DNA of 64,000 nt from Mobula hypostoma (Eukaryota). The notes beneath the pieces were generated by a model. That model saw only the letters and a list, made by a program, of their open reading frames with translations, was not told the DNA's origin and made no database searches. Positions within the stretch are counted from its first letter, which is position 1. Each line of letters opens with the position of its first letter. The translations under genes and the position numbers were made by a program. The stretch lies in assembly GCF_963921235.1 (NCBI RefSeq), contig NC_086108.1:27592001-27656000 (forward strand), written 5' to 3'. This document shows positions 24,463 through 45,766 of this stretch, one piece after another.

Positions 24463-25500
24463 TCCTGTGCGGATGACAACAAGGTTGGTGTCAAAGCAGA
24501 CAGCGAGGAAGCCTATCAAAACTTGCATCGGGATCTAAACAATCTGAGGGGGATAAAAAGCTGAACAATAGCAGATGGAATTTAATGCAAACAAGTGTGA
24601 GGTGTTGCATTTTGGGAGGAGAAACTGGGGTAAGATTTGCACAGAGAATGGGTGAGGCACTGTTGTATGCAGTGGAACAGAGAACCCTGGGAATACAGAG
24701 CCATAATTCCTTGAAAGCAGTAATATGGGTAGATAGGGTTGTAAAGAGAGTTCTTGGCACATTGGCCTTCATAAATTAGGGCACTGTGTATGGGAAGTTG
24801 TATAAGACATTGGCCAAGTTTAGAGTACTGTGTGCAGTTCTGGTCACCTCCTGTACCTATGGGAAAGATATCAATAAAGTTGAAAGTGTGCAGAGAAAAT
24901 TTACACCACAGATGCTGCTGGGACTTGAGGACTTGAGTTACAAGGATAGGCTGAATAGGGTAGGACTTTATTCTCTGGAACACAGGAGAACAAGGAAAAT
25001 CTTGTAGCGGTATACAAAGTTATAAAGGCTATAGGTTGGGTGAGTGGATGGAGGTTTCTTTCCCCTAAAGATGTGTGAGAGCAGAACTAGAGGTTAAACG
25101 TTTCAGGATAAAATATGAAATGTTTAAGGGAACCTGAGGGAGGTACTTCACTTAGACAAGATTCCCCCCACAGTCCAAAGTCGTAACGGTTAGTAGGATA
25201 ATTGGTCATTGTAAACTGTCCTGTAATTCGGCTAAGGTTAAATTGGTGGGTTGATGAATGGCGTGACTGTTTGGGCCATATCTCTAAATAAAATTAAAAT
25301 TAAAATAAACGAACAGTTTATTCTAGCGGAAGTGGTAGATGCAGATTAAAAAAATAACATTTCAAAGACATTTGGATAGTTCAATATGGATGAGAGAGGT
25401 GTGAAGGGCTATTGTCTGGGTGCAGGTAGATGGGTCTAGGCATTAAATCAGACTGGTAATGAATAGATGGGCCGAGGGGGCCTGTTTCTGTGTGAATCTA
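24463..25500 (+). mobile_element. Old CR1 3' fragment containing a SINE-like piece (~25160-25300)
   Basis: Decayed ADD, KCEVLHFG and KVESVQRKFT motifs. Confidence 0.7.
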
Positions 25501-26873
25501 TGACTAATCTCTATCCTCACTGTTTAGTTTCATTTCTTAGCTGATGATTCACTGATCTTGTCATCGTGAGGTAAGGGATATCTTATCTGTCCTTGCTGCT
25601 CCAATGAATTCAATTTTAATATTGTGAATCTGTCCATATAGCCACAACTTCCACTTCCCAACATTATTCTTGACTTCCTTTACTCTCTACAGCTTCTATC
25701 TTAAACTCCATGCAAAGTATTATAGAAAACTTTCAATACTTTTTTTTAATCTTCCACTCTTTGTCCCCATTTTCAAGCTTCAAATTTGTTGCATTTATCA
25801 TCTGCCTGAACTTGCCTGAGAAATTATTTAGTTCTTAGTTCACTTTATTAATCCATTTTTTTCAGAATCTTTCAATTTTCTCCTATTTTGCTCCCAAAAA
25901 TGAATTACTGCACACCTCTCCACAGATAATTTCCATCTCCTATCTGAATTCCTATTCCACCATTCTGTCTCCTTCAAATTTTTTATTACGCTCAGTCATT
26001 GTTTGATAAATCCAATATCATACTGTCAGTGAAAATGGGGATTCTGTCATCTGCATCCAACTATATCTTCAAACTGCCCTCATTTCTGGCATGTATCGTC
26101 TATTTCCAATTTATCTGCAGAGTGAATTACACTCATTCACTCAAAACTCATTTTTCCTGAGTCTTAACCAATTTTCTAGTCAAACCACTTCATGTTCAGT
26201 TATATCAGGTGTCTATTTGTTTTCTTAAACAAGATTTCTTATTAGATACTCAATTAAATACCTAATAATTCTTGTACACCCCATCTGTTGCAGTCCCTTG
26301 ATCTGCCAAATGGATACTTGTTTTAAAGCTATCTTAACAAATCTTTATTAACTGAACAATACATTTTCAATCCCTCATTAAATCTCTTACTATTGATTCT
26401 ACCAGATTGTCTAGAGATGGACTGACTTGAGAATGTCTGATGCTACTGTTGCTCTTTGACAGCTGGCTCTACGTTCCCATGGAATGATCTGTAGTATAGG
26501 TAGGGCTATCAAATTGTAGTTAGATCCTATATTTTCACATCTCTGACCAACATTACCTTCTTAATTGCTGGTCTGTTGTGATAGATATTTGCTCCTTGTT
26601 TCAAAATCTCAGCATTCTAAACACAAGCAGCTACCACTTGTAAGATCATAAACATATGCAAGTAAACTTCCAACTAATATCGAATTCTTTAACTTCTGGT
26701 TGTAAATGGGAGCCAACCTTCAGGTCTTAAAATGTAAATGGATAGCAGTACACACAAAATCTTGGAGGAGTTCAGAAGGTCAGGCAGCATCTATGAAAAA
26801 GAGCACAATTGATGTTTTGAACAAAGACCCTTCAACAGGAATAGCGAAAGGTATCAGCCCAAAACATCAACTG

Positions 26874-27990
26874 TCCTCTTTCTTTAAGGATCGTGGTTTT
26901 CATTCTGCTGTCATCAATGATGCCATCACCCACATCTCCTCCATTTCCCATACTTTGGCTCTCACCCCATCCTCCTGCCACCACAACAGGGACAGAGTTC
27001 CCCTTGTCCTCACCTACCACCCTACCAGCCACCGGATCCAGCACATTATCCTCTGCAACTTCCACCACCTTCAACTGGACCCCAAAACTAAGCACATCTG
27101 TCCCTCTCTACCCCTCTCCACTTTCCGCAGGGACTGGTCCCTCCGCAACTCCCTATTCCACATGTCCCTCCCCACGGATCTCCCACCTGGCACTTATCCC
27201 TGTAAGCGCAAGTGCTACACCTGTCCCTACACCTCCTCTCTTGCCACCATTCAGGGCCCCAAACAGTTCTTCCAAGTGAGGCAACACTTCACTTGTGAGT
27301 CTGTTGGGGTCACCTATTGCATCCGGTGCTCCCAGTGTGGCCTCCTCTACATCGGTGAAACCTGACGCAGACTGGGGGACCGCTTTGTCAAGCTCCGCTC
27401 CATCCGCCACAACAGAGAGGATCTCCCAGTAGCCACCCACTTCAACTCTGCTTCCCACTCCCATTCAGATATATCCATACATGGCCTCTTCTACTGCCAT
27501 GATGAGGCTAAACTCAGGTTGGAGGAGCAACACCTCATATACCGTCTAGGTAGTCTCCAGCCCCTTGGTATGAACATAGAATTCTCCAATTTACGGTAAT
27601 TCCCTCCCCCTCCCTTCCTCTATCCCTATTTCACTCTGCCCCCTCCCCCAGCTTCCTATCACCTCCCCCATGGTTCCGCCTCCTTCTATTACCCATTGTG
27701 TTTTCCCTTATTCCTTCTTCACCTTTCCTGCCTATCACCTCCCTGCTTCCCCTCCCCCACCCCTTTATCTTTCCCCTTACTGGTTCTTCACCTGGAACCT
27801 ACCAGCCTTCTCCTTCCCACCCTCCCCCCACCTTCTTTATAGGGCTTCTGCCCCTTCCCTCTACAGTCTTGACGAAGAGTTCCGGCCTGAAACGTCGACC
27901 GATCTTTTCCACGGATGTTGCCTGACCTGCTGAGTTCCTCCAGCATGTTGTGAGTGTTGCTTTGACCCCAGCATCTGCAGATTATTTTGT
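26874..27990 (+). mobile_element. Penelope-like element 3' part (GIY-YIG endonuclease plus terminal repeat)
   Basis: RVPLVLTYHP, Cys-rich linker CKRKCYTC, VTYCIRCSQCGLLYIGET (GIY-YIG); hammerhead variant CAGTC-TTGACGA...GAAA-CGTC-GACCG at 27864-27901. Confidence 0.88.
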
Positions 27991-28041
27991 GTTTCCAGAG
28001 ATGCTTCTGGCCTGCTGAGTTCCTCCAGCATTTTGTGTATA

Positions 28042-29619
28042 CAGGTGTCCCCCACTTTTCGAACGTACGCTTTACGAAACCTCACTGTTACGAAAGACCT
28101 ATATTAGTACCCTGTTTTCGCTTTCAAAAGGTGTTTTCACTGTTACGAAAAAAATCAGCGCGCGCCCCGAGCAGCCGCTCTCTCCCGGATTCAGAACAGC
28201 ATTGCTGAAACACGTTGCATTGAGCAGCCGTTTGCAAGATGAGTTCTAAGGTGTCGGAAAAGCCTGAAAGAGCTCGTAAGGGTGTTACATTTAGCGTAAA
28301 ACTAGACATAATTAAGCGTTTTGATTGTGGTGAATGAAGTAAGGACAACGTGAGTTTGACTTGTGGAAGCTGACGAAGATGATGTTGAAGAGGTTTTGGC
28401 ATCCCATGTCCAAGAACTGATAGATGAAGAGCTGATGCAATTGGAAGAGGAAAGGATAACAATCGAAACCGAATGCAGTAGCAAAATGAACGTGAAGCCA
28501 CTTCATGAGATTTTCGCTGCAATGATAAAGTACGACTTTACTTTTGAAAGGGTACGTCGGTTTAAGGGATATTTGCAAGATAGTATCAGTCCTTACAAAG
28601 AACTGTATGATAGAAAAATGCACGAGGCTAAGCAGTCAAGCAAGCCCTCCACATCAGCCACAGCAGACGACGAGCCTCGACTTTCTGACATCGAGGCGGG
28701 CAGTCATAGGAGAAGATAAGCCGCCTGCGCTAATGGAAACAGACAAGATGACACCCCAGTGTCCCACCACCCCAACACCCAGGCCGCGGACAGATACAGT
28801 ACCGATTCGCGAAGAACGCAGCAGTAGCCAGGAGACACACAGCACATCTTTAAGAAAAAAGCTGAAATAAGCATTCTAATTAATTAGGTGCCGCCCCACA
28901 CGTAAACATTGGCCCAGATCAGAGGCGATGCAATCGGCAATCGGCACTGATCTGAGCTGACAATTATGTGTCAGGTGGCACCTAATTAATTAGCATGTTT
29001 ATTTCAGCTTTTTTCTTAAATATGTGCTGTGTGTCTCCTGGCTACTGCTGGACTCCTGCGTGTCTCGTGGCAATGTATCGGTTGGTAGCCTGGAGGGTGG
29101 GGGCCACTGCACCACCCCAGCCTGCGACGACTCAGTCTAACACACCATCATCAGTGTGCTCTGCAAGCTGTCTTCCCGATTCAGGTAAGTGATACTACAC
29201 TGTACATACATTATTTCTACTTTATATCGGCTGTGTATTTTTACGTGTTATATGGTATGATTTGGCAGCTTCATAGCTTAAAGGTTACTGGAGAGCGCTT
29301 GGGCTGTGTTTCTGCGGAGAGCGCTTGCATGAGGTTTTCTGCTGAGAGCGCTTGCGTGAGATTTTTGCTTCGGCGAGCAGCGCCGACAATGATTGTGGAA
29401 AAGTATATTAATCATATCATTCCTGCTTTTACTACATGTTATTGTTATTTTCGGTTTTATGTGTTATTTGGCATGATTTGGTAGGTTATTTTTGGGTCTG
29501 CGAAAGCTCACAAAATTTTCCCATATAAATAAATGGTAATTGCTTCTTCGCTTTACGACATTTTGGCTTACGAACCGTTTCATAGGAATGCTCTATCTTC
29601 GGATGGCGGGGGAAACCTG
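28042..29619 (+). mobile_element. Internally deleted Tigger/pogo DNA transposon
   Basis: TA TSDs (28040-28041, 29620-29621); imperfect TIRs CAGGTGTCCCCC / GGGGGAAACCTG; N-terminal HTH relic RKGVTFSVKLDIIKRFD joined to the acidic C-terminus EDDVEEVLASHVQELIDEELMQLE; DDE domain missing. Confidence 0.85.
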
Positions 29620-30700
29620 TATTGCTTGGATTTCCAGCATCTGCAGCTTTTCTCTTGTCTGCAAGTAGATAACAGTCATCAATTTGAAGTGAAAAAAGTA
29701 TAGTCTATGGAACAGCTTTGCAGATGCTTTGTCTGTAAGAGAGCACATGCTAGCTCACTGCACCTGCTTTTTTGCTCAAGAGCAAAGTATGAGACTTGGT
29801 TATTTCAAACAGCCAAGCTGACTCTTTTATGTTGCTTACTTCAAGGAAAATTATAGTACTAATGGACAATATCATTTGGTATATCAATAACTGATGTGCT
29901 TATAGTTGGAAGAGTGTTTTGTACTCAAGGAAGTCAGCTTCACGGCAGTTACAGTATTAATTTGAAATTGTGAATATTAAGCAGAGCTCTATGTCTCGAA
30001 AAGATGCTTTGAAACCATTTGTGCTAAAAAGATACCTAAGAAAATATCATATGCATGTGATATCATCCAAATGGAAGTAAAAGGGCATGAATGTAGAGAG
30101 AAGTTCAGTCTTATTAGGAATACAGTAATGGACATCAAGAAGAAACGTGGAACAAGCATGGGGTGAACTAGAATCTATTACCCAGTTCCATTTTCTGAGA
30201 CAGATGGTGTGTTCATCTTTATCTTTGGTACTGTATGTCTTTTTATTTTATCGGAACTATACCTGTATTTTGGAAATATTTTGTGTTTAAGAAATGTTTT
30301 ATATTTAGCAAATGCTTTGTGTTGTAGAAATAACTGTGTGTTAGAAATCGTTTGCAATTTGAAAATGGTTAAGATAGAAATCCTCTGAGTTTAAAATATG
30401 TTTTAAGAATGTTCTTTGGATTTAAACATATATTACTGAAAATAAATGTACTCTGTTTTAAACTACTTTGTTAGCTGGAAGTACCTTCCCCTGGGTGATA
30501 AGAGGGAACCCACTGGTTACATAATGGATATTGGCAGCTAAACTCACCACGGAGAATAAACAATAAAGTAAACTTATCTTTGAAGACTGTTACAGCATAA
30601 TCTCTACTTAGTGAGAGTACTCATGACTATTTATATCCAATAGGACTTAAGCACTTCATTTGAGTTTAAAACGTCCGGTCCACAAACCTAATACCCACAG

Positions 30701-30718
30701 TGGGTGTCCGATGTGGTC
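30701..30718 (+). promoter_or_regulatory. Degenerate primer-binding site (tRNA-Lys1,2-like)
   Basis: TGGGTGTCCGATGTGGTC lies directly after the LTR end and resembles the foamy PBS TGGCGCCCAACGTGGGGC, mostly through transition changes. Confidence 0.55.
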
Positions 30719-30889
30719 ACTGTTATGCCAAAAGTATTATTTTAGAAAGCATTTTCATTTAGCAGTAGGCTAACTCATAGAGCTCTCAACAAGTGCTATA
30801 GCACTGCAAATCATACTATAAAATTTTCGACATCCTGATTTCTAGCAGTGGTGCAGGCCAATTGATATTATGAACGTGTTAATAGTATA

Positions 30890-31680
30890 ACAGAGCTAAG
30901 TAGTTACGGCGCCCAACGGCGACTCCTTTGCTTGCATCTTCGAAAATGGTTCTATTTCCACCTTTAATTTCTCTATTTTTCAGTTTCAGGGTTCCTTTGA
31001 AGACCCTGGCCTGGAGTTACACGCTGACTACGTTTCTTTGCGGGAATGGGACCCACTCCCGGGGTTCCACAATCAGCCGCTATTCGGCATGCCAAAGGCT
31101 TGGCCTAAGATTTCGACATGGATTCAGAAGCCTGGGATCTTGAGGAACTGGAGATGAACGGATCAAGGGTCACTGTCACCACAGGAGATCCGTGTGTCGT
31201 TGGGGGAGTCAGAACAGCTGCTGTGTGCCTGGGGACCTGGGATCTTTGCGATCTTCAGGCACAGAGCTCAAAAAGTGATGCAATGGACTTTTAAAATCGT
31301 AAACCAGCGAGTTGTTTGTTATGTCTCCCCGCTTGTTGGAAAATGGGGTTATCTCTTTCTCCCTTATTCGGAGAGAGTGAGCCTTCAGCATGTCGAATTA
31401 TCGGGTGAACAATGTAGTCTTTGGGGTAACTGCAAGTCTGTGTCTGTGCTATTGCTTCGCTCACGCTTGAGTGCTGGTGGGGGGAGGAGGATTTTTGCTT
31501 ACTGCTGCTTATGTGGGGGAGGGAGGGGAGCTGTGGGGGGACTTTGGGGTTCTAACATTTAATTATCATTCATTCTTGGAGCACTCGTCTGTTTTTGTGG
31601 ATGGTTGTGAAGAAAAAGCATTTCAGGATGCATATTGTATATATTTTTCTGACATTAAATTGTACCTTTTAACCTTTGAA
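30890..31680 (+). mobile_element. Non-autonomous LINE-tailed element inserted in gag
   Basis: CpG-richer than its flanks; ends ATTAAA...ACCTTTTAACCTTTGAA (short-repeat tail); the gag relic resumes directly after it. Confidence 0.55.
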
Positions 31681-32549
31681 ATATAATTACTGGGATTAAG
31701 ACCCAGCTGTTCCTGAAATTGAACATAATGAATACTTTAATCTTCAATTTAGAGACTAGAATAATAAAGGGATTGAAGACAGAATAAGATGCAGATTAGA
31801 CAGATCAAACCCAATGTATGTCTTGCTGGACTCATACTTCCACAAATTGTACCAGATCCCTACAATATAGTCTTATTTGTGCCTGGAGACAACAAAATTG
31901 TCTCCTTTTTAGATAGAAACCAAGCACCTAGGTGGGGATCACACACTTATGTGATAGGACCTGGTTACCCACATCTTAATCCTGATGCAATGGACACATG
32001 AGGTAGCGACCTAACCTGTAAACACTCGAGGTGCTAATGAAGCCTGGAGAACAGATGCTTGGGAACATGCACTAGAATTACTAAAACTATTGACTATAAC
32101 TTATAAAAGCATCCCCTGAACAAACTTCTCATCATGTTTGCAGGCAGTATGCGAACACTGCTAGCTGATGTTGAAGGAATTCTGAAATGGCTCTTAGAAT
32201 GCCAGGAGGTTAAAGGGATACTCCCCAACATAGTCATAATTTCTGAAATAATATTATTTCCCATAGTCCTGGTGGCACTTCCACACGAATATGGAAACCC
32301 ATATCAGATATATTTATAAACAAATAAATGACAGAGATGTAAGGAAAGACATTATACTGTATTCAGTAAAATAGTCAAAAGGTGGGGTCAAGAACAGCTT
32401 ATAATATTGGAGAACAAATGGCGAGGGCAGACTGGGACTTAGCTCATTCGATAATGTCCCCCCTATATCAACACCTGATACATAAACAATTTGACATGGT
32501 CTGCGCTTGCAGGACTGGACACAAGTGCAGAGGAACGGCAGACTTTCTC

Positions 32550-33380
32550 TGTCACGGTGGACACAGGCTCCAGCTCAACCCAGGAGCATTGAATGGCAGG
32601 CTCATGACTCGACCCAAGAGCGGTGAATGGCAGGTTCACGACCCAACCTGGGAGCGGTGAATGGCAGGCTCACGTCCCGACCCGGGAGCATCAAATGGCA
32701 GGTTCACGTCCCAACCCAGGAGCATCGAATGGCAGGCTCATGACTCGACCCAAGAGCGGCGAATGGCAGGTTCACGACCCGACCCGGGAGCATCGAATTG
32801 CAGGCTCACATCCCGACCCGGGAGCATCGAATGGCAGGCTCACGTCCCGACCCGGGAGCATCGAATGGCAGGCTCACGACTCGACCTGGGAGCATCGAAT
32901 GGCAGGCTCACGACCCAACCTGGGAGCGGCGAATGGCAGGCTCACGTCCCGACCCGGGAGCATCGAATGGCAGGCTCACGTCCCGACCCGGGAGCATCAA
33001 ATGGCAGGTTCACGTCCCGACCCGGGAGCATCGAATGGCAGGCTCATGTCCCGACCCGGGAGAATCGAATGGCAGAATCCCCATGAAGAAATGGGAATAA
33101 CGGGTTAGGCATAGGATTAACAACAGAGCCTCAGCAGGACAACTAAACAACAAATCACCTTCTGTAACACAGTAGGACCCCATGAAAGAGCTAACTAGAG
33201 AACCCTTTAAATAGTCATAGAATACAGGAAGCACATGCCAGTCATAATTAACTTAACAAGAATAAACTGAAAGTTCAAGGGCCTAAGCTCTAGTTAAGAT
33301 AATAGTAAATACAGGTGTTTGAGGAATCAAGAAGATCGAAGTTCTACGGCAAGCCACAGAGGCCCATGGGGCTCGTAACA
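32550..33380 (-). mobile_element. Solo-LTR-like insertion carrying a minisatellite
   Basis: Termini TGTCACG...CGTAACA; TATTTAAAG on the minus strand near 33205-33214; no TSD found. Confidence 0.55.
32576..33075. repeat. 34-bp minisatellite, ~14-15 copies
   Basis: Unit GGGAGCATCGAATGGCAGGCTCACGTCCCGACCC. Confidence 0.95.
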
Positions 33381-33977
33381 CAACTTCAGGTTATTGAAGA
33401 GGGCCTGCACATCCACGTGCTAGTAGCAGGATTACCGTTTGTCCCCACACTAGGGCAACGAGATGGTAGCACAGATTCTCTCTAAATGGAATGTAGGGTC
33501 AGTAACAAAGACATCAAGCCAGCCTTGTTCCTCGGGTTGATCATATTCACAGCATTCTCCTACACCAACACTTCAGCAGGGAAGATGTAATCAACAAATC
33601 AAGCAAGTTCTCTGGTGACCATGTGCCTTAGGAAGAGAGATTCAGCTACAAGGTGGAGGAACAGACACTAGGTACAGGCCACAACTTATAGTTCCACCCC
33701 TTTCTTTGCAGAAGAAATTATTAGACTAAGATACTCCTTCTGGGACAGACGGAACATTAAGAGGCCACATCAAAATTACGGAGAAGAGTATGAAAAAAAG
33801 CACACATCACAAGGCCTGCTCATCCTTCATCCTCTCAATATAAAAAGGAACAGAACCCATTCTAATCATGCACTTCCTCTCCTGCAGCTTAGGGAAAACA
33901 AAATGTAAAGAAGGGAAAGGCTAATGTTAATGCATTGAAAACTGAACAGGAGGATTTCAGCAACAGCTCTACTCAAA

Positions 33978-35130
33978 ATGCTCCATCTGACCAACAGGAT
34001 ACAGGCATACCTAGTCTCGCCTTTCCATATGACAAAGCTTGTACCTTTTGGCATAATTTGACCCTGCCATTTTGATACAGCAATAGAAATGGTAACAGAA
34101 GCTGCAAGGATTTGATTTGTAAAAGTATAAATCTTGCATACATCTAGCTAATGGCTTACTGGTCACATCGGCTGTCATGAACCCTGTGGGCTTGTGTATT
34201 TAATTGTTGTTTTATCTAGAGTCATTAAGCCCTTGTTCTTTCTGATTAATCCTGTCAAGTTTATTTTGACAGGCATGAGTTTTCTGCATTCTGTGATTAA
34301 TTTGGTTCAGATCTAAGGACTCAATTTGATTCAGAATGTTGTTCGCTTCTATTGTTTACATGATTTGTTGTGTTTTTTTTTCCTTAAAGGCAACCCAACT
34401 TATCAGAAACCTGAAAATAGTATTCTTGTGATAATTTATCTCTGAACGGTGTATATGTGGTTAGTCTCCACGGCTTTTTGTAGTGAGATTGCAACTGTCA
34501 CAGCACTCAAAAATTCCATATTCTCACATGCTGGCATTCCTCCCCCTACATACGCACTGACTGAGGGTCCTTATTCAACGGTAAAGGCTTTCGAGCCACG
34601 TGTGAACAAACAGGCGTAAATAAGGAGTACAGCATTGCCTTCTGCCCACAATCAAACAACCCATTTTGAAGCGAAGGAATCGAGAGATGAAGAAGGCCTG
34701 GCTAAACTGCTCTACACTAGAGGCACGGTAGGCTACACCCGTCCCTGAAGTGCTACTGTCCGTAAACAATGCGCCAAATGCAAAAATAGGAGTACAGAGG
34801 AATGTTACACCTTATTCCTTAACATATAACGTCCACTGAAATACACCCCTGATTGCCAACGTAGGCCAACCAAAGCCTATACTCAATACACCTCTCCTCA
34901 GGGCATTCAAGTGAAAGGAAAAGAACCTGTCAAGAAAGCTTAGAGACCTAAAAAAGAGTGGTGGGTCAAAGAAAATGAGTTCCACAGAAATAATTCCAAC
35001 CCTATTTTCCATCATGGATGAAAAACTCCTTGTCTCATTACTCAGGTTAGAACTATGTCCATGGATAACATCAAATCTGCCCCAACAGGATTTATCCCCC
35101 AGAATGAGTGGAAACCGTGTATTAGATCTG
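33978..35130 (+). pseudogene. pol: Foamy-type pol relic: possible protease start plus integrase; RT and RNase H deleted
   Basis: ATG at 33978 is in frame with CHFDTA (34065-34082; ~AHWDSG). Integrase: ILVIIYL*TVYMWLVSTAFCSEIATVTAL ~ [40 protein letters not shown] ~ EFSTPYHPQSS; KRRNREMK ~ ERKNSDIK; C-terminal A*RPKKEWWVKE...G*KTPCLITQVRTMSMDNIK ~ SWSPVVGQLVQE...RWHKPSTVLKV...RTVSIDNLK. Foreign insert at ~34173-34388. Confidence 0.82.
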
Positions 35131-35169
35131 TCCATGGGTCCAAGATGGAAACCCTAGACCTCAACAGGT

Positions 35170-37502
35170 GGAAGGATTGAGATGTATTGAAAAGGTAAAA
35201 CACATACTGTACTTAGATCTGAAAAGCAACATAAAAATCCCTATTCACTTGAGGAATATCTCATGGATACATTGCCCAGGGATAATACATTCAGAACACG
35301 TTGTTGATTTCAGTGAAGGCCAGATTCAAACTTCAAAGAAGAACTGCTGGTTTGCTGCATTTTACTTTTAATGCTTGTGTTTATTATACTATTGTTCACT
35401 TCTGCCTTACTAATCATTTGCTTTTCCACAGACCAAGTCATATTTACCATGGAAGATTCTCATCTGGCTCAGACACCGCTAAAACAAAATGACTCAGAGA
35501 ATATTAGATTGATAGGATGGTCGCGGTTAACCATGGATATTAAACCCTAGCTATCTACATGATACGCATGTCAGGGCAGTACAATATGGAGAGCAACCTG
35601 TTGCCCATTCAGCAGGCTCCCTCATTCACGCAGCAGAAGTATCCAAATAAATCCAGCATAGACCAATAAAATTTGGCGCCAGTGGTGTTGCAGGAGTTGC
35701 CAGTCTGCTTTGAACTCAACGTTGAACTACCTTCAGGACTCCAGCTCTGGAATTTTCCTTGGAGTTTACTCCCAAAGCCTTCCCATGCTTGCATATAGCA
35801 GCAAGATTTGAGATTAGAAGTTTTCTTCTCTAAGCTGTCAACCACAGCTGATGAGCCCTGTCTGCCTGAAGTGGCAGGTTTTAAGGTGCTAGTAACTGGC
35901 CTTTGCCCCTTCTCTTCTCAGTACAAATGGTTCCACTGGGCTTAGTAGCTAAGCGACATTTGAAGACTAGGAGCTCAATTTGATTGTTAGAAGCTATTTG
36001 AGATGCACACCATTTGGAGCATTTAATAAGTAGTGAGAGCTTATCCCCCACTACTCCCCCCCCCACCCACTCCACGATGACAACCTTAAGGAAACAACCA
36101 AGCAATTGCAAGCAATGGTAATTCTAATTTAAATATCACTAAATGGCCCTGAACTCTCGGTCATATGTGAACTAATATACTGGAACCCTTAAATCTTGCC
36201 TCTGGCAAATTGATCGTTGCTGTCCACTTAAACATTCACTCTGACCGTTTTGCAGACGAAATGAACCTAGATACATGGGAGGGTAAAGAATCACTTGCAG
36301 AAATGATATATAACACCTGAACAAAACTGAAAAATTCCATCCAGATATTCAAAATAAACTAATAGAGTAATCCCTTGACGTGGATCCCTCCACACTTGAA
36401 GAAAATTACATGTTATCGAATAATCCCACTCTTGGCTACATGACATTGAAACTATTGGACTACAGCATTGTGAAAAACCCTATTTTTTAAACGAAGACTT
36501 CTCCATTATACGGATATCTTACTGCACTTTTCCTTTAAGGATAAAAAGAATATGAGCTTACTTACTACAAAGATTTTGGACATTTTCATTTCTGCAATTA
36601 TGGCCACTATTCCATTCCATTATTAAATGTCAAGGTTACATGACAATTTTCTGTATTTCTGGGTTATGTTCTAAATGATTCAGCAAAGCCTTGATCTGGG
36701 TTTTTACATGGGAAGATAAGATGGAAAGATACACAGAAATAGAGGCTAAGATAAAATGAAAATATTTTCCTGCCTGGTCAAATGAAATTTAAAAATCCAA
36801 TAAATTTTTTAGGGATTTCATTTCCATAGACTATTGTATTTATCCAGATTTCTTGTTTGCCCTTCATCAAACAGTTGTGAATAGTTTGTGCTACTGTGCA
36901 AATACTATCTTACAACAAAAATTAGTTCAGAATTATTGGTGCCCTTACAAATTCAATTATATTTCAGATAGACTTTGACAACAAGTTGAAGAACAGGGAA
37001 ACAAACCTATGACAAACTTTAGTATTGGAGGCCAATTGATAATGTTAAATTTTGGGGTTACACTGCTAACATTACTCCCCAAATAGACATTGTTACATAC
37101 AGAGGTTTATGACTCTTGGGGTAATTTGATGATTTAATATACTCAAGGTAGTTGTCCAGTTTTAAGGAACAATTTATGATTGATGCAACAAACAATGTTC
37201 TAGGATTTGATATTTCTCAACAATGGGTAGAAGAAACTAGAGGAGCGAGGCACCTCCTTTCACAAATTTCTTTCTCAGACTCATACTAAGCACCTGACTG
37301 GCTTAACACTTTAGATGAAACAATAGCTAAGACCTTTCCAGCTGTTGCACATTTAGCTTCCACAGCAGCAAATACGGTTTCCGGATGGATTGGAAATATT
37401 TTAAATTAGGTTGAAGATATTATTTTGGCAGTTTTCCAATGGACCTTTCTCTTAGCCATTGGAATTATTATTTTTGGAGTATACTTTTTGTTGAAATGCT
37501 GA
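35170..37502 (+). pseudogene. env: Foamy-type Env relic (internally deleted; insert at ~35510-36090)
   Basis: Leader TM LVFIILLFTSALLIICFST ~ LVCILLIIVLVSCFVT. In one frame from 37158: SFKEQFMIDATNNVLGFDIS ~ SIKEQIERAKAELLRLDIH; PDWLNTLDETIAKTFPAVAHLASTAANTVSGWIGNIL ~ PAWIQQLAAATKDVWPAAASALQGIGNFLSGTAQGIF; then TM anchor FLLAIGIIIFGVYFLLKC*. Confidence 0.8.
35510..36090. mobile_element. Interspersed repeat inserted in env (possibly an RTE-type 5' region)
   Basis: Shift to higher GC that interrupts the env relic; family assignment is tentative. Confidence 0.4.
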
Positions 37503-38729
37503 AGCCTGCAGTGATGGGAATTTGGTGACTACTACTTTTTGTATAACGGTGTCACACCTGAGACATTTTTAACTCCCAAACATAACCTGCATCACAATGG
37601 TTTATTTCTCATTTGACTGCTTTGTTATACACTGCCTTATATTTGTCCCTTTACCTATACCTTTGGTTTATCCTTAGCCCTGGCAAAGTAAAGAGCAGGG
37701 CCTACCCTGACTACATTATCCTTGCATCTCTCCTTTTCCTAGTCCTGATCACGAATGTATACATATTGGCATGCCTGTTTCTCACCTCATCTTGAGGAGC
37801 TGGGATGGGTCTGTCATGAATAATTGGCTTAATAACACAATCCCATAGAAAGATATGTCAACAGAATTATTTTTACTTACCTATTTGGATGTTACATATT
37901 TTACTTTCTGACATGGGTAACTTTTTATATACAAACGTATACAGTTCATTAGATTTCATGTAGTGTACATTGTAAGTGTGTTGTTCATTGCTAATGATGG
38001 CATTATACTATCATGATTTACACCTTTGACTTTTAAAACCATCGATCTTACAATATTTATTGTGTTATGTTACATAGTGGAAAAGGACTTGCCAGGAGAA
38101 TGATAGCTACCCCAGAGGAATGCCATACTCCTGATAACCTTCTTAACTATTCTATTGTGATTTCTTCTGAAATGGAGATGTAATCCTAGGGCCCCTGGGG
38201 TTTACAAAACATTATCTTGTCACAAGGTAGAACTGTTTGAATGTGTTTCACTTACTATTTAGGTATAAGTATATATTGTGTATGTGATACTCGTACAATG
38301 CAACAAATAGGACCACTAGACTTATCCATATTGCTGTTTGCGTTATACTCAATGTTACAAGAATAGTTTGTATGTTTGGTTAATAAAATCCCAGGATTTG
38401 ACAGAACAGACTGAGTAGCCTTGTTATGCTAAAGCTTTCTGGGAAAACATACAAGTTGGGAAGATGTGCCAATTCTTCTCAGTTAGACCTAATCCTTATC
38501 AAAGTAAAGGGGGAAAACCTGAACAATTATACACAGAGTTCAGAATCACTAAAATGGGAAGAAACATGTTTGATGTCAGAATGTTAAATTAAACCATACC
38601 GATAGTGTTCACTTCCATGGGAGAGACATGCCCCAACTCAAATGTGGTGTCATCTTTCTTTCTCTGGGAGCTTAAAATTCAAGGCATGGACAGAATCCTC
38701 TTCCTTATTTTTGTAAAAGTTTCTTTGTT

Positions 38730-39030
38730 GCTTATTTATTTATTTGTTTGTTTGTTTGTTTATTTATTTATTTATTGAGATAAAGCATGGAATAGCCCTT
38801 CTGGCCCTTCAACCAGCACTCTGCTTTAACCCCAGCCTAATCACGGGAAAATTTACAATGACCCATTAACCTACCAACTGATATGTCTTTAGATTGTGGG
38901 AGTAAACCAGAGCACCCAGAGAAAACCCACATAGTCACGGGAAGAACAGACGTATTCCGTAAAGTGATGGAAATAGAGTCCAGGTTGCTGGTTCTGTAAA
39001 GCATTGTGCTAAACTCTAGCTACCATGTCA
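38730..39030 (-). mobile_element. SINE-like element with (TTTA/TTTG)n tail
   Basis: Tail at 38732-38776; core GAGTAAACCAGAGCACCCAGAGAAAACCCAC resembles the SINE fragment at 50420-50560. Confidence 0.6.
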
Positions 39031-40887
39031 CGATTTATGTATTTAACAATATTGTAAAATCCTGCAACAGATGTAGATAATTTTTTCTAATTAAATGGGA
39101 GATTACTAATCCTTAGGCAAAAGAAGACAGCAGTACATGATCAGTAACTTGTTTACAAGACTTGTTTTCATGAAACCTGATGTGTACCACATCAAAAGCA
39201 ATGTGAACACCTTGTGAAAGAGATGAACGATGAACTATCTTCAGCTTATTGAGAGACATTGCTAGCTTACCTGATGAACTAACACTAACAGAAACAGTGA
39301 TCAAAACTGCATCAAGAAACTGGCAAGAACTGTTAGTGGGGAAGAAGATCTTAAAGATGGATCGATATAGACTTGTATTATGGGCATTAATGCATCACTG
39401 TTGTGTGTTTATGGAAAATTCTATTGTTGAAATTTCTTTGACCTTTGGGAAATGTGTGCAGCTCAGATTGAGGAAGTGAATATTCTGAAGAGAAAACTAC
39501 ACAGAACCCTTACATTGGGAAGTACTCAATGAGTCCTTTGAGCGTCGTAGTGAAGACAGCATTTCTAGTAATGATAACCTACTGGAACAGATGAAGGAGT
39601 AATAGTCTGTTCCCAAGGTGAGTCTAGGCAGGGGACTTGAAGCTGATATCTGTAGGAAGAAGCTGAGATAGAAATCTTTGCTCAGCAATAGTGTGATGGA
39701 TATTTGGTTTTCATCTCATGTTTGCTAATCTCGGCTTTTTAAACACAAGCAGTTGCCACTAGGAAGATCACAAACAGATGCAAGTAAACTTCCAATAATA
39801 TTGAGTTGTTTAACTTCTGGTCATAAATGGAAAGCAGTAAACAGTTTGAAGTTAAAAAAGTATTGTCTATAGAACAGTTTTGCAGATGCTCTCTGTCTGT
39901 GAGAAAGCATATTCTAGCTCATCACACCTGCTTCTCTGCTCAAAAGTAGAGTATAAGACAATGGGTTGTTTCAAACTGACAAATAGACTCTTAAGTTGCT
40001 CAGTTCAAGGAAGCCTGCAAAATAGATGGATATCATTTAGCACACCAATAAGTGATGTGTTTATAGCTGGAAAAGTTTTATGTACTCAAGAAAGTTAGCC
40101 TCACAGCATTTACATCACGAATTGTGAACTGTGAATGTTAAGCTGAAGCCTTCATCTTCTTAAGATGTTTTTAGACAGGTTATGTTAAAAGGATATACAG
40201 TATGAAGAAATATCATCTGAGTGTGAAGTCATCCATGCAGGAGAAAAAGGATATAAATGTAAAGAGTAGTTCAGCCTTATCAGGAAGGGGGTAGAAAAGA
40301 TCAAGAGGAAACCTGGAAGATGCACGGAGTGAACTAGAATCCATTCCTCTAGTTTCAGTTTCTGAGACAGATGGTTTGTTCATTTTCATCTCTTTAGTTT
40401 ATAGGAAATGTACTTGTATTTAGGAAATCTTTTATGTTTAAGAAATGCTTTGTGTTTTAGAAATGGCTTGCAATTCAGAAATGTTTAAGTTAGAAATCCT
40501 GTGTTGGTGATGTTTGGATTTAAACATGTATCACTGAAAATAAATTAACAGTTGAATAAACTCTTCTTGGTTCAGGTATCAATTTTAACTGATGTTGATA
40601 ACAAACTCTGCCATCTTCATGAAGGTAGCAGAGTTTGTCATTGAATCATTGGTTTAAATCGATAACTGTACCCAGCTGGATACCTGAGAGGAGTTACTTA
40701 TATCATACACACCAAAAAAGCATTAGATCCTTTTATGACTGATCTGTGTTTAAACTACTTAGTTAGCTGGAAGAATCTTCTTCTTGGAAGGGAGAGAGAA
40801 ACTCATTGCTCTAATAGTGGATATTGATAGTTTAACTCGCCATGGAGAATAAATAGTGAAGTAAACTAGTTTTTGAAGTTTGCATAG

Positions 40888-41303
40888 TGTCACACCTTGA
40901 ACTGACCACCAGATGGGGGCAGAAATGATGAGGCCAACTCTGTCTGCTCACCCATATAAGGCTAATTATTAGTTCATGGTTATCAATGGTGTCTTGTTTG
41001 TAGCCTTATGTAAGCTCATTGACCCTTATTTATTTGCTCGGTCTTAGAATAATCTTTTGTAAGTGAAGTTGCACCTTTGTAGGAATCTATAGTTTTTGGA
41101 ACTTGAGTTTATATTTTTTGGATTTTGAATTTGCCTGTGAGACATTTTAGACCCCCTCCTGAACCCTGCCTGCTATGGATTCCAGTAAAGCCTTGTTGGG
41201 TTTTATCCCTCTAATTTTGTGTGACTTTTCTCTGCAATTGGGTTCTATACTATTCAGTGTAAGGAAAGTTAAAACTGAAGAAGTTACCTAGTCAACTGTG
41301 ACA
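40888..41303. mobile_element. Solo LTR (416 bp) inside the foamy 3' LTR
   Basis: TGTCACA...TGTGACA termini; ATAG at 40884-40887 and 41799-41802 may be the TSD, displaced by the adjacent LINE. Confidence 0.65.
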
Positions 41304-41798
41304 GAGTTGTCCTGTCCAAGACCGGAAGAAGCTGCAGAAGATTGTGAACACAGCCCAGCACATCACACAAACCAATCTTCTGTCCGTGGACTCACTTTAC
41401 ACCTCACGCTGTCGGAGCAGTGCTGCCAGGATAATCCAGGACACGACCCACCCAGCCAACACACTTTTCGTCCCTCTTCCCTCGGGAGAAGGCTCAGGAG
41501 TTTGAAGACTCGTGTGGCCAGATTTGGGAACAGCTTCTTTCCAACTGTGATAAGACTGCTGAACGGATCCTGATCCAGATCTGGGCCGTAACCCCCAAAT
41601 ATCCGGACCTGTCTCTCGATTTTTTTTTTGCACTACCTTACTTTCCCTTTTTTATTTTCTATTTGTGATTTATAATTTAAATTTTTAATATTTAATATTT
41701 GTACTCCAGGGAGCGCGAAGCGCAGAATCAAATACCGCTGTGATGATTGTACGTTCTAGTATCAATTGATTGGTGACAATAAAGTATGAAGTATAAAG
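41304..41798 (+). mobile_element. Rex1/Babar-type LINE 3' end
   Basis: GRRLRSLKTRVARFGNSFFPTVIRLLN; AATAAAGTAT tail. Confidence 0.8.
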
Positions 41799-42084
41799 AT
41801 AGTTACAGTATTATCTTTCCTTAGTGAGAGTACTCATAGCAGTTCATATCTAAAAGGGTTTAAAGTCTTTGAGTTTAGAACTTCATGGTTAGCAAACCCA
41901 ATGCCATCGCCTTGTTGCATAGTATAATGTATTCCAAGCTCAACTAAATAACGTTTTTATACATAGTGCTAAGATAACAACTATATTTATTCCAATCTTG
42001 GTGTTTATGTTGTAACAAGCCTATCAAATGGGAAAACTACTTGTAATGTACAGTACACAGTGAAACTACTTGCAAAGATACATA

Positions 42085-43251
42085 CATCAGCATGCTATTT
42101 ATCGACAACAGCTCAGCATTCAATACCACCATCCCCTCAAGACTAATCAATAAGCTTCAAGACTTTGGCTTCAAAACCTCCTTGTGGAATTGAATCCTCG
42201 ATTTCCTCGCTTGTAGACCCTAGTCAGTTTGGATCGGCAACAACATCTCCTCCACAATCTCCATCAGAAGATATGCACCGTGAGGCTATGTGCTTAACCC
42301 CTGCTCTGCTCACTTACACTTATGACAGTGAGGCTAAGCACTGCTCCAATAGCATATTTAGGTTTGTCGATGATGCCACTGTCACTGGTCAAACCAAAGG
42401 TGGTGATGAATTGCTATATAGATTGGAGATTGAAAATCTGGCTGAGGGGTGACACAACAGCTTCTTACTCAATCTCAGTAAGACCAAGGAACTGATTGAT
42501 TATTGACTTCAGGAGGAGGAAACAGGAGGTTCATGAGCCAGTCCTCATCAGAGGATCCAAGGTAGTGAGAGTCAGCAACTTTAAATTTCTTGGTGTTACT
42601 CTTTCAGAGGACATGTCCTGGGCCCAGCATGTAAGTGTAATAGCAAAGAAAACATGCCAGTGCCTCAACTTCCTTAGATATTTGCAAAGAATTTGGCGTG
42701 ACATCTAAAATTGTGACAAACTTTATACAGGTGGTAGTGGAGAGTATATTGACCGGCAGCATCACAGCCTGATATGGAACCAGCAATGCACTAGAACGGA
42801 AAATCCTACAAAAGTAATGGATGTGGCCCAGTACCTCTAGATAAACCCCTCCCCACCATGAAGAGTATTGTTACAGGAAAGCAGCGTCCAATATCAGGAA
42901 CCCCCACCACCCACATACTCTCTTCTTACCGCTATCATCAGCAAGGTACAGGAGTGTCAGGACTCACATGAGTATGTTCAGAAATGTTATTACTCATCAA
43001 CCATCAGGGTCTTGAACCAAAGGGAATAACTTCACTCAACTTCACTTGCCCCATCATTGAAATGTTCTGACAAGCTATGGGCTCACTTTCAACGACTCAT
43101 CATCTCGTGTTCCTTTGTATTTGCACAGTTTGTTGTTTTTAACATATTGGTTGAATTTGCATGTTGCTGAGGTCTTTCATTGATGCTATGATGGTTATTA
43201 TTTTATTATGGATTTATTGAGTATGCCCATGAGAAAATGAATCACAGTGTT
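42085..43251 (+). mobile_element. Rex1/Babar-type LINE fragment (tail resumes at 45767-45828)
   Basis: [21 protein letters not shown] and FKFLGVTLSED; the 3' UTR is split by the CR1 at 43252. Confidence 0.78.
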
Positions 43252-45766
43252 ACATAGAAACATAGAAAATAGGTGCAGGAGTAGGTCATTCGGCCCTTCG
43301 AGTCTGCACCACCATTTATTATGATCATGGCTGATCATCCAACTCAGAACCCCACCCCAGCCTTCCCTCCATATCCCCTGACACCCGTAGCCACAAGGGC
43401 CATATCTAACTCCCTCTTAAATATAGCCAATGAACTGGCCTCAACTGTTTCCTGTGGCAGAGAATTCCACAGATTCACCACTCTCTGTGTGAAGAAGTTT
43501 TTCCTAATCTCAGTCCTAAAAGGCTTCCCCTGTATCCTCAAACTGTGGCCCCTCGTTCTGGACTTCCCCAACATCGGGAACAATCTTCCCGCATCTAGCC
43601 TGTCCAATCCCTTTAGGATTTTATACGTTTCAATCAGATCCCCCCTCAATCTTCTAAATTCCAACGAGTACAAGCCCAGTTCATCCAGTCTTTCTTCATA
43701 TGAAAGTCCTGCCATCCCAGGAATCAATCTGGTGAACCTTCTTTGTACTCCCTCTATGGCAAGGATGTCTTTCCTCAGATTAGGGGACCAAAACTGCACA
43801 CAATACTCCAGGTGTGGTCTCACCAAGGCCTCGTACAACTGCAGTAGTACCTTCCTGCTCCTGTACTCGAATCCTCTCGCTATAAATGCCAGCATACCAT
43901 TCGCCTTTTTCACCGCCTGCTGTACCTGCATGCCCACTTTCAATGACTGGTGTATAATGACACCCAGGTCTCATTGTACCTCCCCTTTTCCTAATCGGCC
44001 ACCATTCAGATAATAATCTGTTTTCCTATTTTTGCCACCAAAGTGGATAACTTCACATTTATCCACATTAAATTGCATCTGCCATGAATTTGCCCACTCA
44101 CCCAACCTATCCAAGTCACCCTGCATCCTCTTAGCATCCTCCTCACAGCTAACACTGCCACCCAGCTTCGTGTCATCCGCAAACTTGGAGATGCTGCATT
44201 CAATTCCCTCATCCAAGTCATTAATATATATTGTAAACAACTGGGGTCCCAGCACTGAGCCTTGCGGTACCCCACTAGTCACCGCCTGCCATTCTGAAAA
44301 GGTCCTGTTTATTCCCACTCTTTGCTTCCTGTCTGCTAACCAATTCTCCACCCACACCAATACCTTACCCCCAATACAGTGTGCTTTAAGTTTGCACACT
44401 AATCTTCTGTGTGGGACCTTGTCAAAAGCCTTTTGAAAATCCAAATATACCACATCCACTGGTTCTCCCCTATCCACTCTACTAGTTACATCCTCAAAAA
44501 ATTCTATGAGATTCATCAGACATGATTTTCCTTTCACAAATCCATGCTGACTTTGTCCGATGATTTCACCGCTTTCCAAATGTGCTGTTATCACATCCTT
44601 GATAACTGACTCCAGCAGTTTCCCCACCACCGACGTTAGGCTAACCGGTCTATAATTCCCCGGTTTCTCTCTCCCTCCTTTTTTAAAAAGTGGGGTTACA
44701 TAGCCACCCTCCAATCCTCAGGAACTAGTCCAGAATCTAACGAGTTTTGAAAAATTATCACTAATGCATCCACTATTTCTTAGGCTACTTCCTTAAGCAC
44801 TCTAGGATGCAGACCATCTGGCCCTGGGGATTTATCTGCCTTCAATCCCTTCAATTTACCTAACACCACTTCCCTACTAACATGTATTTTGCTCAGTTCC
44901 TCCATCTCACTGGACCCTCTGTCCCCTACTATTTCTGGAAGATTATTTATCTCCTCCTTAGTGAAGACAGAACCAAAGTAATTATTCAATTGGTCTGCCA
45001 TGTCCTTGCTCCCCATAATCAATTCACCTGTTTCTGTCTGCAGGGGACCGACATTTGTCTTTACCAGTCTTTTCCTTTTTACATATCTATAAAAGCTTTT
45101 ACAGTCCATTCTTATGTTCCCTGCCAGTTTTCTCTCATAATCTTTTTTCCCCTTCCTAATAAAGCCCCTTGTCCTCCTGTGCTGAACTCTGAATTTCTCC
45201 CAGTCCTCAGGTGAGCCACTTTCTCTGGCTAATTTGTATGCTTCTTCTTTGGAATTGATACTATCCCTAATTTCTCTTGTCAGCCACGGGTGCACTACCT
45301 TCCTTGATTTATTCTTTTGCCAAACTGGGATGAACAATTGTTGTAGTTCATCCATGCAACCTTTAAATGCTTGCCATTGCATATCCACCGTCAATCCTTT
45401 AAGTGTCATTTGCCAGTCTATCTTAGCTAATTCATGTCTCATACCTTCAAAGTTACCCCTCTTTAAGTTCAGAACCTTTGTTTCTGAATTAACTATGTCA
45501 CTCTCAATCTTAATGAAGAATTCCACCATATTATGGTCACTCTTACCCAAGGGGCCTCTCACGACAAGATCGCTAATTAACCCTTCCTCATTGCTCAAAA
45601 CCCAGTCCAGAATAGCCTGCTCTCTAGTTGGTTCCTTGACATGTTGGTTCAAAAAAGCATCCCGCATACATTCCAAGAAATCCTCTTCCTCAGCACCTTT
45701 ACCAATTTGGTTCACCCAATCTACATGTAGATTGAAGTCACCCATTATAACTGCTGTTCCTTTATT
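43252..45766 (-). mobile_element. Young CR1 LINE, 5'-truncated within the AP endonuclease
   Basis: MGDFN, LGKSDH, KSPGPDG and RT motifs, broken by a few stops or frameshifts; tail ACATAGAAACATAGAAA; TSD GTGTT (43247-43251 / 45767-45771). Confidence 0.95.

Follow-up and report, generated by a model that had tools for sequence, protein, structure and literature searches.

We analysed a window of 64,000 nucleotides from the ray Mobula hypostoma (NCBI RefSeq assembly GCF_963921235.1, contig NC_086108.1, positions 27,592,001 to 27,656,000 of the forward strand) and found that its positions 26577–41911, on the plus strand, form a single provirus with paired long terminal repeats (LTRs), a sequence resembling a primer-binding site (PBS), and gag, pol and env relics in retroviral order. 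Very probably it is the dead remnant of a provirus from an ancient family of foamy-like endogenous retroviruses (ERVs; class III, related to Spumaretrovirinae), and this copy has no present function. The provirus measures about 8.7 kb without its inserts and about 10.5–11 kb with its deletions restored; it is interrupted by at least eight younger insertions and, by comparison with sister copies, by two internal deletions. About 15 kb of apparent junk can thus be read as one nested provirus, which for genome annotation also sets the boundaries of a large LTR family. The proposed foamy-like identification is built on sister copies; the window alone yields one weak direct family match (Foamy_virus_ENV, E 0.04).

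Structure of the provirus and colinearity with sister copies

The host genome (3.48 Gb, 200 contigs) was scanned for other copies, as the initial annotation of this DNA had proposed. Family sizes are first-look candidate counts, and identities are given only for copies that were scored. Internal pieces returned 285–557 candidates and the LTR 2,516. The sister integrase frame accounted for 557 candidates (150 scored), the env DNA block 36100–37760 for 400, with 73–80% identity in 39 other scored copies, and the sister env protein frame for 285. Among the integrase matches listed, all 149 others have stops or a short open frame (48–201 aa).

Six copies were fetched with their flanks and mapped onto the window and onto one another. 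The block order common to sister copies is 31996–32469, 33380–34167, 34387–35517, 36107–37104, 37109–37244, 37247–38700 and 39028–39691, followed by the LTR. The LTR–PBS–leader–gag junction is colinear in loci L004 and L006, the gag–pol–env junctions in copies C2, C73 and C91, and the junction from the post-env region through the polypurine tract to the LTR in L022, L026 and L028. Since L004 and L006 run unbroken from the LTR end through PBS and leader into gag, the segment 30891–31680 is an insertion and the 5′ LTR belongs with the internal part. These data demonstrate that the window contains one provirus and that this provirus is a member of a dispersed family.

Direct repeats paired 26597–30650 with 39719–41863, and pairwise BLAST resolved them into two LTRs of the same orientation, each about 1.2–1.3 kb long without inserts. 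The 5′ LTR consists of 26577–26709 (+), which starts with TGTGATAG and is 80% identical to 39692–39830, and of 29673–30699 (+), which ends in CACA and was delimited by the LTR alignment and sister copies. The 3′ LTR comprises 39692–40549 (+; start TGTGATGG) and 40743–40888 (+), both placed by the LTR alignment, and a last piece at 41776–41911 (+), whose end was placed by the inverted terminal 8-mer of sister copies. Both LTRs start with TGTGAT(A/G)G and have inverted 8-base termini: the LTR end in L004, CCATCACA, is the reverse complement of the starting 8-mer, further sister LTR ends read CCA followed by tca(c/t), and the two ends in the window are decayed versions. Over 953 aligned bases (inserts left out) the pair differs by 125 transitions and 82 transversions (p 0.217; Kimura two-parameter distance, K2P, 0.26). 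Identity is 73–80% by segment within the pair versus 67–73% to 39 scored copies elsewhere. The env surface-subunit block, at 73–80% among copies, is better kept than the LTR; lower CpG content or past selection are possible reasons.

Foamy viruses generate a 4-base target-site duplication. The bases flanking the provirus, CTGT (26573–26576, +) and TTGT (41912–41915, +), were recognised by flank comparison as a candidate duplication, which is weak evidence by itself. Sampled words of the left junction stretch were recovered from sequencing runs at 57% for the second organism, 23% for the fifth, 11–13% for C and 4% for D, giving no evidence of a shared insertion. Age figures derived from the LTRs are rough, since they depend on assumed substitution rates and the decay of CpG sites makes the distance too large; the lowest rate applied was the catshark assumption of PMC10699275.

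The one provirus with two long LTRs, a PBS-like site and ordered gene relics that the initial annotation had described is thus borne out, both by the LTR pair and by the colinear sister junctions. Its younger insertions were confirmed as well; their number was put at about ten, and at least eight events were found. The provirus, called hidden, proved to be one of hundreds of dispersed copies and is not unique. As for the suspicion that the LTRs could be an unrelated dispersed repeat, they are dispersed, but the repeat belongs to the same element.

The PBS-like sequence (30701–30718, +) starts two bases after the LTR and is tRNA-Lys-like. It was scored against the 18 bases expected from host tRNA-Lys(CTT) and tRNA-Lys(TTT), the comparison being confined to these two tRNAs. 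Their 3′-end types have 21 and 28 matches in the genome (control, 0), and one gene of each type was confirmed by ARAGORN as tRNA-Lys(CTT) and tRNA-Lys(TTT). Agreement with Lys(CTT) and Lys(TTT), respectively, is 11/18 and 10/18 in L006, 10/18 and 10/18 in L004, and 7/18 and 8/18 in the window without gaps, where a one-base gap improves the match. The mismatches to Lys(CTT) in two sister copies are mostly transitions (4/7 and 5/8). Of the "Lys1,2" site previously proposed, the tRNA-Lys likeness is compatible with the 10–11 of 18 bases in two sister copies; the scores do not discriminate between Lys(CTT) and Lys(TTT). The PBS is followed by a leader, possibly with the gag start (30719–30890, +), colinear with L004 and L006, in which the leader directly adjoins the gag region. 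At the opposite end, the 3′ internal region (39028–39691, +), defined by sister copies, terminates in a polypurine-tract remnant. A purine run lies beside the 3′ LTR in all three junction-spanning sister copies (L022, L026, L028), and the window is short of 4–6 bases there.

Pol, gag and env compared with foamy viruses

Searches of the PDB sequences were performed with unaltered or X-read frames of sister copies. With the integrase core of locus L038 (132 aa), foamy-virus integrase was retrieved at E 1.4e-19 (73.5 bits) and occupied the top eight rows; the best other match, labelled "Integrase", reached E 3.9e-8 (36.4 bits), and HIV-1 integrase entries came next. All eight matches of a second integrase frame were to the same foamy-virus integrase chains. 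The RNase H of C2 matched foamy-virus protease-reverse transcriptase (PR-RT) and RNase H at E 5.9e-14 to 1.7e-10, the next best being a gamma-type RT/RNase H at E 7.3e-4. The RT thumb/connection of C73 matched five foamy PR-RT sequences over residues 343–505 (E 2.2e-15 to 4.7e-13); a non-retroviral chain followed at E 0.051, and no HIV, MLV or other retroviral RT was seen with E ≤1. Exogenous foamy viruses (prototype/simian and marmoset) thus provide the best matches for all three parts (reference structures 3L2Q/3DLR for integrase, 7O24/7KSE for PR-RT and 2LSN for RNase H), and their lead over the next retro-element or cellular homologue is 33–44 bits for RT, RNase H and integrase. Judged from sequence, the pol of the family is clearly foamy-like, relative to solved structures. 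A word-based protein search with the integrase frame gave no homologue.

Pfam analysis of copy C2 gave, from 5′ to 3′, Gag_FV_central (4.2e-4), RT_RNaseH (2.3e-3), rve (2.2e-5), SH3_11 (1.1e-5) and Foamy_virus_ENV (0.031). SH3_11, the retroviral integrase C-terminus, exceeds its cut-off in this copy (26 bits versus 25). Sixty further frames from other copies added Gag_FV_central at 7.9e-3, rve with Integrase_H2C2, SH3_11 three times and Foamy_virus_ENV at 0.014. The integrase of C2 is split by an L1-type insertion (L030:2198–4774, minus strand) with matches to Transposase_22 (E 1.1e-9), Exo_endo_phos (E 1e-9) and zf-RVT.

In the window, the C-terminal part of gag and the pol start (protease/RT region) lie at 33380–34167 (+), a stretch with many stops and no Pfam match that is colinear with C91, C2 and C73. 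It ends at a deletion scar (34168–34373, +), at which sister mapping reveals 1.4–2.1 kb that is present in sister copies; in those copies, the piece missing here encodes the RT thumb/connection and RNase H for which foamy-virus PR-RT was the best match. The integrase catalytic-core relic (34374–34712, +), delimited by sister frame comparison, carries stops and a frameshift. Its segment 34374–34658 matches the sister frame containing Pfam rve at E 3.9e-12 with 40% identity; when X-read and submitted to a PDB sequence search, the window relic gave no match. The integrase C-terminal relic (34713–35170, +) has no Pfam match in the window and is colinear with sister stretches that match SH3_11. In C2, only about 1 kb separates the Gag_FV_central match from the RT connection. 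To judge from their sequence, the gag tail, protease and RT core may be shortened alike in the amplified copies (C2, C73, C91); if so, most of the hundreds of copies would have been spread by helper elements. Visual inspection showed a "DTPxG" string close to where the protease would be expected, but we do not interpret it as an active site.

The gag relic at 31681–32469 (+) comprises the N-terminal part and the start of the central domain and is common to L004, L006, L021 and L030. Window positions 32370–32480 match, at E 6e-12, the sister Gag frame that is recognised by Gag_FV_central. This family was detected in two of the five frames covering the spot (E 4.2e-4 and 7.9e-3), at the same profile positions, 87–144. 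No CCHC motif was present in any of seven gag stretches read in all three sense frames, although decay could have erased it. Neither the gag N-terminal frames nor two extra env frames matched a Pfam family. One env and one Gag frame were also submitted to the ESM Atlas and gave no usable match; IQ-motif clusters at ≤0.84 were taken as chance.

Env starts, approximately, at 35171–35517 (+), where a hydropathy scan identified a leader and then a first hydrophobic segment (35332–35433). The leader comprises about 50 residues in the window, and about 45–60 residues precede the hydrophobic run in sister frames, which have the same layout of hydrophobic segment and C-terminal membrane span. The surface-subunit relic (36107–37104, +) is the best-kept block of the family, and its positions 36766–37080 match a sister env frame at E 3.9e-38. 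In the transmembrane-subunit relic (37105–37510, +), which has no PDB or Pfam match, hydropathy places a membrane span at 37416–37499, near the frame end. About 280–330 bases have been lost at 37105–37154, since all seven sister loci covering both sides have extra bases there. The following region (37511–38700, +), common to C91, C18b, C71 and C73, occupies the place of foamy accessory genes; the family-shared sequence between env and the 3′ LTR amounts to about 1.85 kb, with no Pfam match and no kept frame.

The Pfam scan of the window covered frames of at least 45 aa (76 on the plus and 67 on the minus strand). Its sole relevant match is that of 36793–36975 to Foamy_virus_ENV (12.1 bits, profile 365–412); nothing retroviral was found in the 67 minus-strand frames. 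Together with sister copies, Foamy_virus_ENV was detected in three of seven frames, one of them from the window, at E 0.014–0.04 and profile positions 339–412. When 323 frames were compared with 24,736 Pfam models, the two spumavirus families were the only virus-genus-specific matches; each occurred where the gene order predicts it, and its profile positions agreed between copies. The weak Gag and Env matches carry weight because of this specificity. At this level of evidence, gag and env point weakly to the foamy type.

Three genes had previously been put forward as matching foamy virus, and for pol this is correct. For gag and env, the HMMER check against Pfam that was suggested at the time returned Gag_FV_central in two of five frames and Foamy_virus_ENV in three of seven, all below the cut-off, while rve was matched in sister copies. 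The predicted Gag without CCHC knuckles agrees with the seven stretches examined, its spuma type depending on that sub-cut-off match, and the predicted Env with a long leader before its first transmembrane segment fits the hydropathy layout. Best hits among Gypsy or gamma/epsilon elements, which would have spoken against the proposal, were not obtained; foamy-virus enzymes ranked best in the PDB searches.

Alternative readings, proposed history and known relatives

Several observations weigh against assigning the whole element to the foamy type. Gag_FV_central scores 20.4 and 16.2 bits against a curated cut-off of 30, and Foamy_virus_ENV 12.1–13.6 bits against a cut-off of 27. As the matches to each family come from homologous copies and are not independent, they amount to one weak signal each. 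PDB sequence searches found no foamy Gag with the sister Gag frame and no foamy Env with the transmembrane part of the window env. The env region of the window, X-read in three frames, matched no Pfam family. The env surface-subunit alignment A1 gave no match in a PDB profile search, none at E 0.001 when run as a HMMER profile against 1.84 billion representative proteins, and none among longer proteins in a word-based search. A genome-wide PF03408 search returned nine candidates, none at E ≤0.001, and was uninformative since its controls were silent. The RT polymerase core (Pfam RVT_1) was absent from 96 frames of at least 60 aa of three copies and from X-read C2. Moreover, the PDB reference set is without ERV-L, epsilon-like or fish retrovirus enzymes, so that "closest to foamy" means closest among solved structures and is not derived from a tree. 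The flanks, CTGT and TTGT, are alike at three of four bases.

A rival explanation is that only the pol of this class III ERV is related to foamy viruses, the element being ERV-L-like or of another basal lineage with a gag and env not of the foamy type, and that the Gag and Env matches to Pfam are noise. With every such match below the cut-off and the other env and gag searches blank, and with a PDB set whose margins in pol cannot split class III lineages, this explanation deserves consideration, but we regard it as unlikely. Noise would have had to produce, as the only two genus-specific Pfam families in 323 frames, two spumavirus families that fit the gene order and align to the same parts of the profile in different copies. 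An env-sized region with leader, hydrophobic anchor and C-terminal membrane span is present. ERV-L elements belong to class III, lack an env gene and encode a dUTPase in pol; no dUTPase match was found in the Pfam scans of the window and sister frames.

That the two LTRs are independent solo copies flanking unrelated retroviral debris, which never formed one provirus, is very improbable. The LTR is indeed highly dispersed, the pair is only slightly closer to each other than to copies elsewhere, and the target duplication is imperfect. However, both LTRs have the same orientation, PBS, leader and gag succeed the 5′ LTR just as they do in L004 and L006, the internal part ends before the 3′ LTR as it does in L022, L026 and L028, the internal blocks are all arranged as in six other copies, and the flanks still agree at three of four bases. 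Gypsy-type elements have a CCHC Gag, often a chromodomain in the integrase and usually no env, and gamma- and epsilon-type ERVs a Gag with CCHC and a p30-type capsid, a TLV_coat-type Env and an MLV-like pol. Least probable of all is that the element belongs to one of these ERV types or to the non-retroviral LTR retrotransposons of the Ty3/Gypsy or BEL groups: integrase, RNase H and RT fragments match foamy-virus chains far above others, MLV-type RT/RNase H was seen at E 7.3e-4 in one search and was absent for the RT thumb, and no zf-CCHC, Gag_p30, TLV_coat or chromodomain match was found in any Pfam scan.

Under the favoured interpretation, a foamy-like provirus, the ancestral retrovirus would have begun with an LTR and a PBS of tRNA-Lys type, followed by a gag lacking zinc knuckles, a pol encoding protease, RT, RNase H and integrase, an env whose leader was long, a post-env region, a polypurine tract and the second LTR. 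It would have colonised the germ line of a cartilaginous-fish host and been amplified there to hundreds of proviruses and thousands of LTRs, mostly solo. The copy described here would then have integrated, probably with a 4-base target duplication, and decayed neutrally, every gene gaining stops and frameshifts. This decay would have removed about 1.4–2 kb, from the RT thumb to the integrase N-terminus, as well as roughly 0.3 kb of env; later, at least eight transposon or satellite insertions would have arrived.

Foamy-like ERVs have been reported from the elephant shark (CmiFLERVs; Aiewsakun and Katzourakis 2017, PMC5512871) and the small-spotted catshark (ERV-Spuma.0-Sca, 293 elements, with no Gag or Env domain detected; PMC10699275). 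Both sets were defined by Pol or RT trees (PMC5512871, PMC10699275). The latter study screened three batoids, two skates and one sawfish, and reports elements from the catshark alone. A literature search on foamy retroviruses in skates and elasmobranchs found no report of a batoid foamy-like ERV. Compared by description with CmiFLERVs and ERV-Spuma.0-Sca, the present family likewise has a cartilaginous-fish host and a foamy-type Pol and is multi-copy and defective. The elephant-shark ERVs described in PMC4422223 group with viruses of the snakehead and epsilon types; in complete ones the LTR divergence is 0.024–0.033, far below the K2P of 0.26 found here.

Teleost and amphibian foamy-like ERVs (AciFLERV, AliFLERV, NviFLERV) have a comparable layout of LTR, tRNA-Lys PBS, gag–pol–env and accessory region, and can be abundant (PMC5512871). 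Unlike the present family, which is an order of magnitude more diverged, they are young and have readable frames; paired-LTR distances of AciFLERV are 0.2–1.1% (PMC5512871). Most mammalian foamy viruses prime with tRNA-Lys and some with tRNA-Asn (PMC5512871). Beyond pol, the family appears to resemble exogenous foamy viruses in its tRNA-Lys-like PBS, its Gag apparently without CCHC, the long Env leader before a hydrophobic anchor and the region between env and 3′ LTR. It differs from them in an Env about 0.7 kb-equivalents shorter than the 982-position Pfam model suggests, a short Gag tail after the central domain, the lack of tas/bet homology, and in being dead and endogenous.

The element is therefore a very old and abundant addition to the known foamy-like ERVs of cartilaginous fish and not a new class. 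This agrees with the initial annotation, which had expected a new lineage or locus rather than a new class, and with the published cartilaginous-fish elements. More tentatively, it could represent a separate batoid lineage of foamy-like retroviruses, with integrations of the order of 100 million years or older, that has retained a foamy-type Gag central domain and Env; we consider this possible but doubtful. If true, direct fossils of foamy structural genes, beyond Pol, would reach back into cartilaginous fish.

The family is of interest mainly for its ray host and its great age, and for a Gag and an Env that may be of the foamy type. Foamy viruses have been used to argue that retroviruses arose in the sea during the Palaeozoic (PMC5512871). 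Cartilaginous-fish fossils are the thinnest part of the foamy record, the published ones resting on Pol alone from one shark (2017) and one catshark lineage (2023). A ray host would fill a host gap in the record of foamy-like ERVs. The family offers more characters and many datable insertions: it runs to hundreds of copies, its LTR pairs have diverged by about 22%, and there are hints that Gag and Env are of the foamy type.

Younger insertions and neighbouring elements

The 5′ LTR is interrupted by nested younger insertions (26710–29672; 2,963 bases) that are found neither in the 3′ LTR nor in sister LTRs. They include an inner element of 1.58 kb (28039–29621), which lies inside an outer element and shares 84% identity with an unrelated site next to C73; this inner element contains an internal inverted stretch (28779–29050) and an acidic-rich frame (28360–28716). 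The outer part (insert 26710–28038) shows, at 26706–27596 (+), open frames of 219 and 77 aa without a Pfam match. Towards their end they are Cys-rich, and the motif that comes next resembles the GIY-YIG endonuclease of Penelope-like elements. Short tails of this insert (27860–28040 and 29618–29658) recur beside several sister copies.

Between leader and gag, the insertion at 30891–31680, not found in L004 and L006, is a 790-base high-copy repeat with 11,313 genome candidates and 82–85% identity in 39 other scored copies; its family is much younger and far more abundant than that of the provirus. A further younger insertion (32470–33379) stands where the sister copies C2 and C91 have only 68–84 bases. 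It contains a 34-base tandem array (32578–33075; 14.6 units, 86% matches), which a direct-repeat scan extends to 32503–33148; the insertion splits the gag relic, and the array creates long spurious open frames on the plus strand. The env relic is interrupted by 589 bases (35518–36106) at a point where sister copies are unbroken (e.g. C91, 9999 to 10006), and a younger insertion with a (TTAT)n run (38701–39027) lies where sister copies have 37–42 bases. In the 3′ LTR, a small insertion (40550–40742) is not shared by the 5′ LTR or C91, and a younger one of 887 bases (40889–41775) was recognised from the LTR alignment and sister copies.

An Rfam scan of 25000–44000 matched no family. Downstream of the provirus, 43254–44717 (minus strand) carries open frames of 248 and 208 aa that look LINE reverse transcriptase-like by eye. 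Over 43254–43999 it shares 97% identity with sequence next to copy C18a, which suggests that a young, recently active family adjoins the old provirus.

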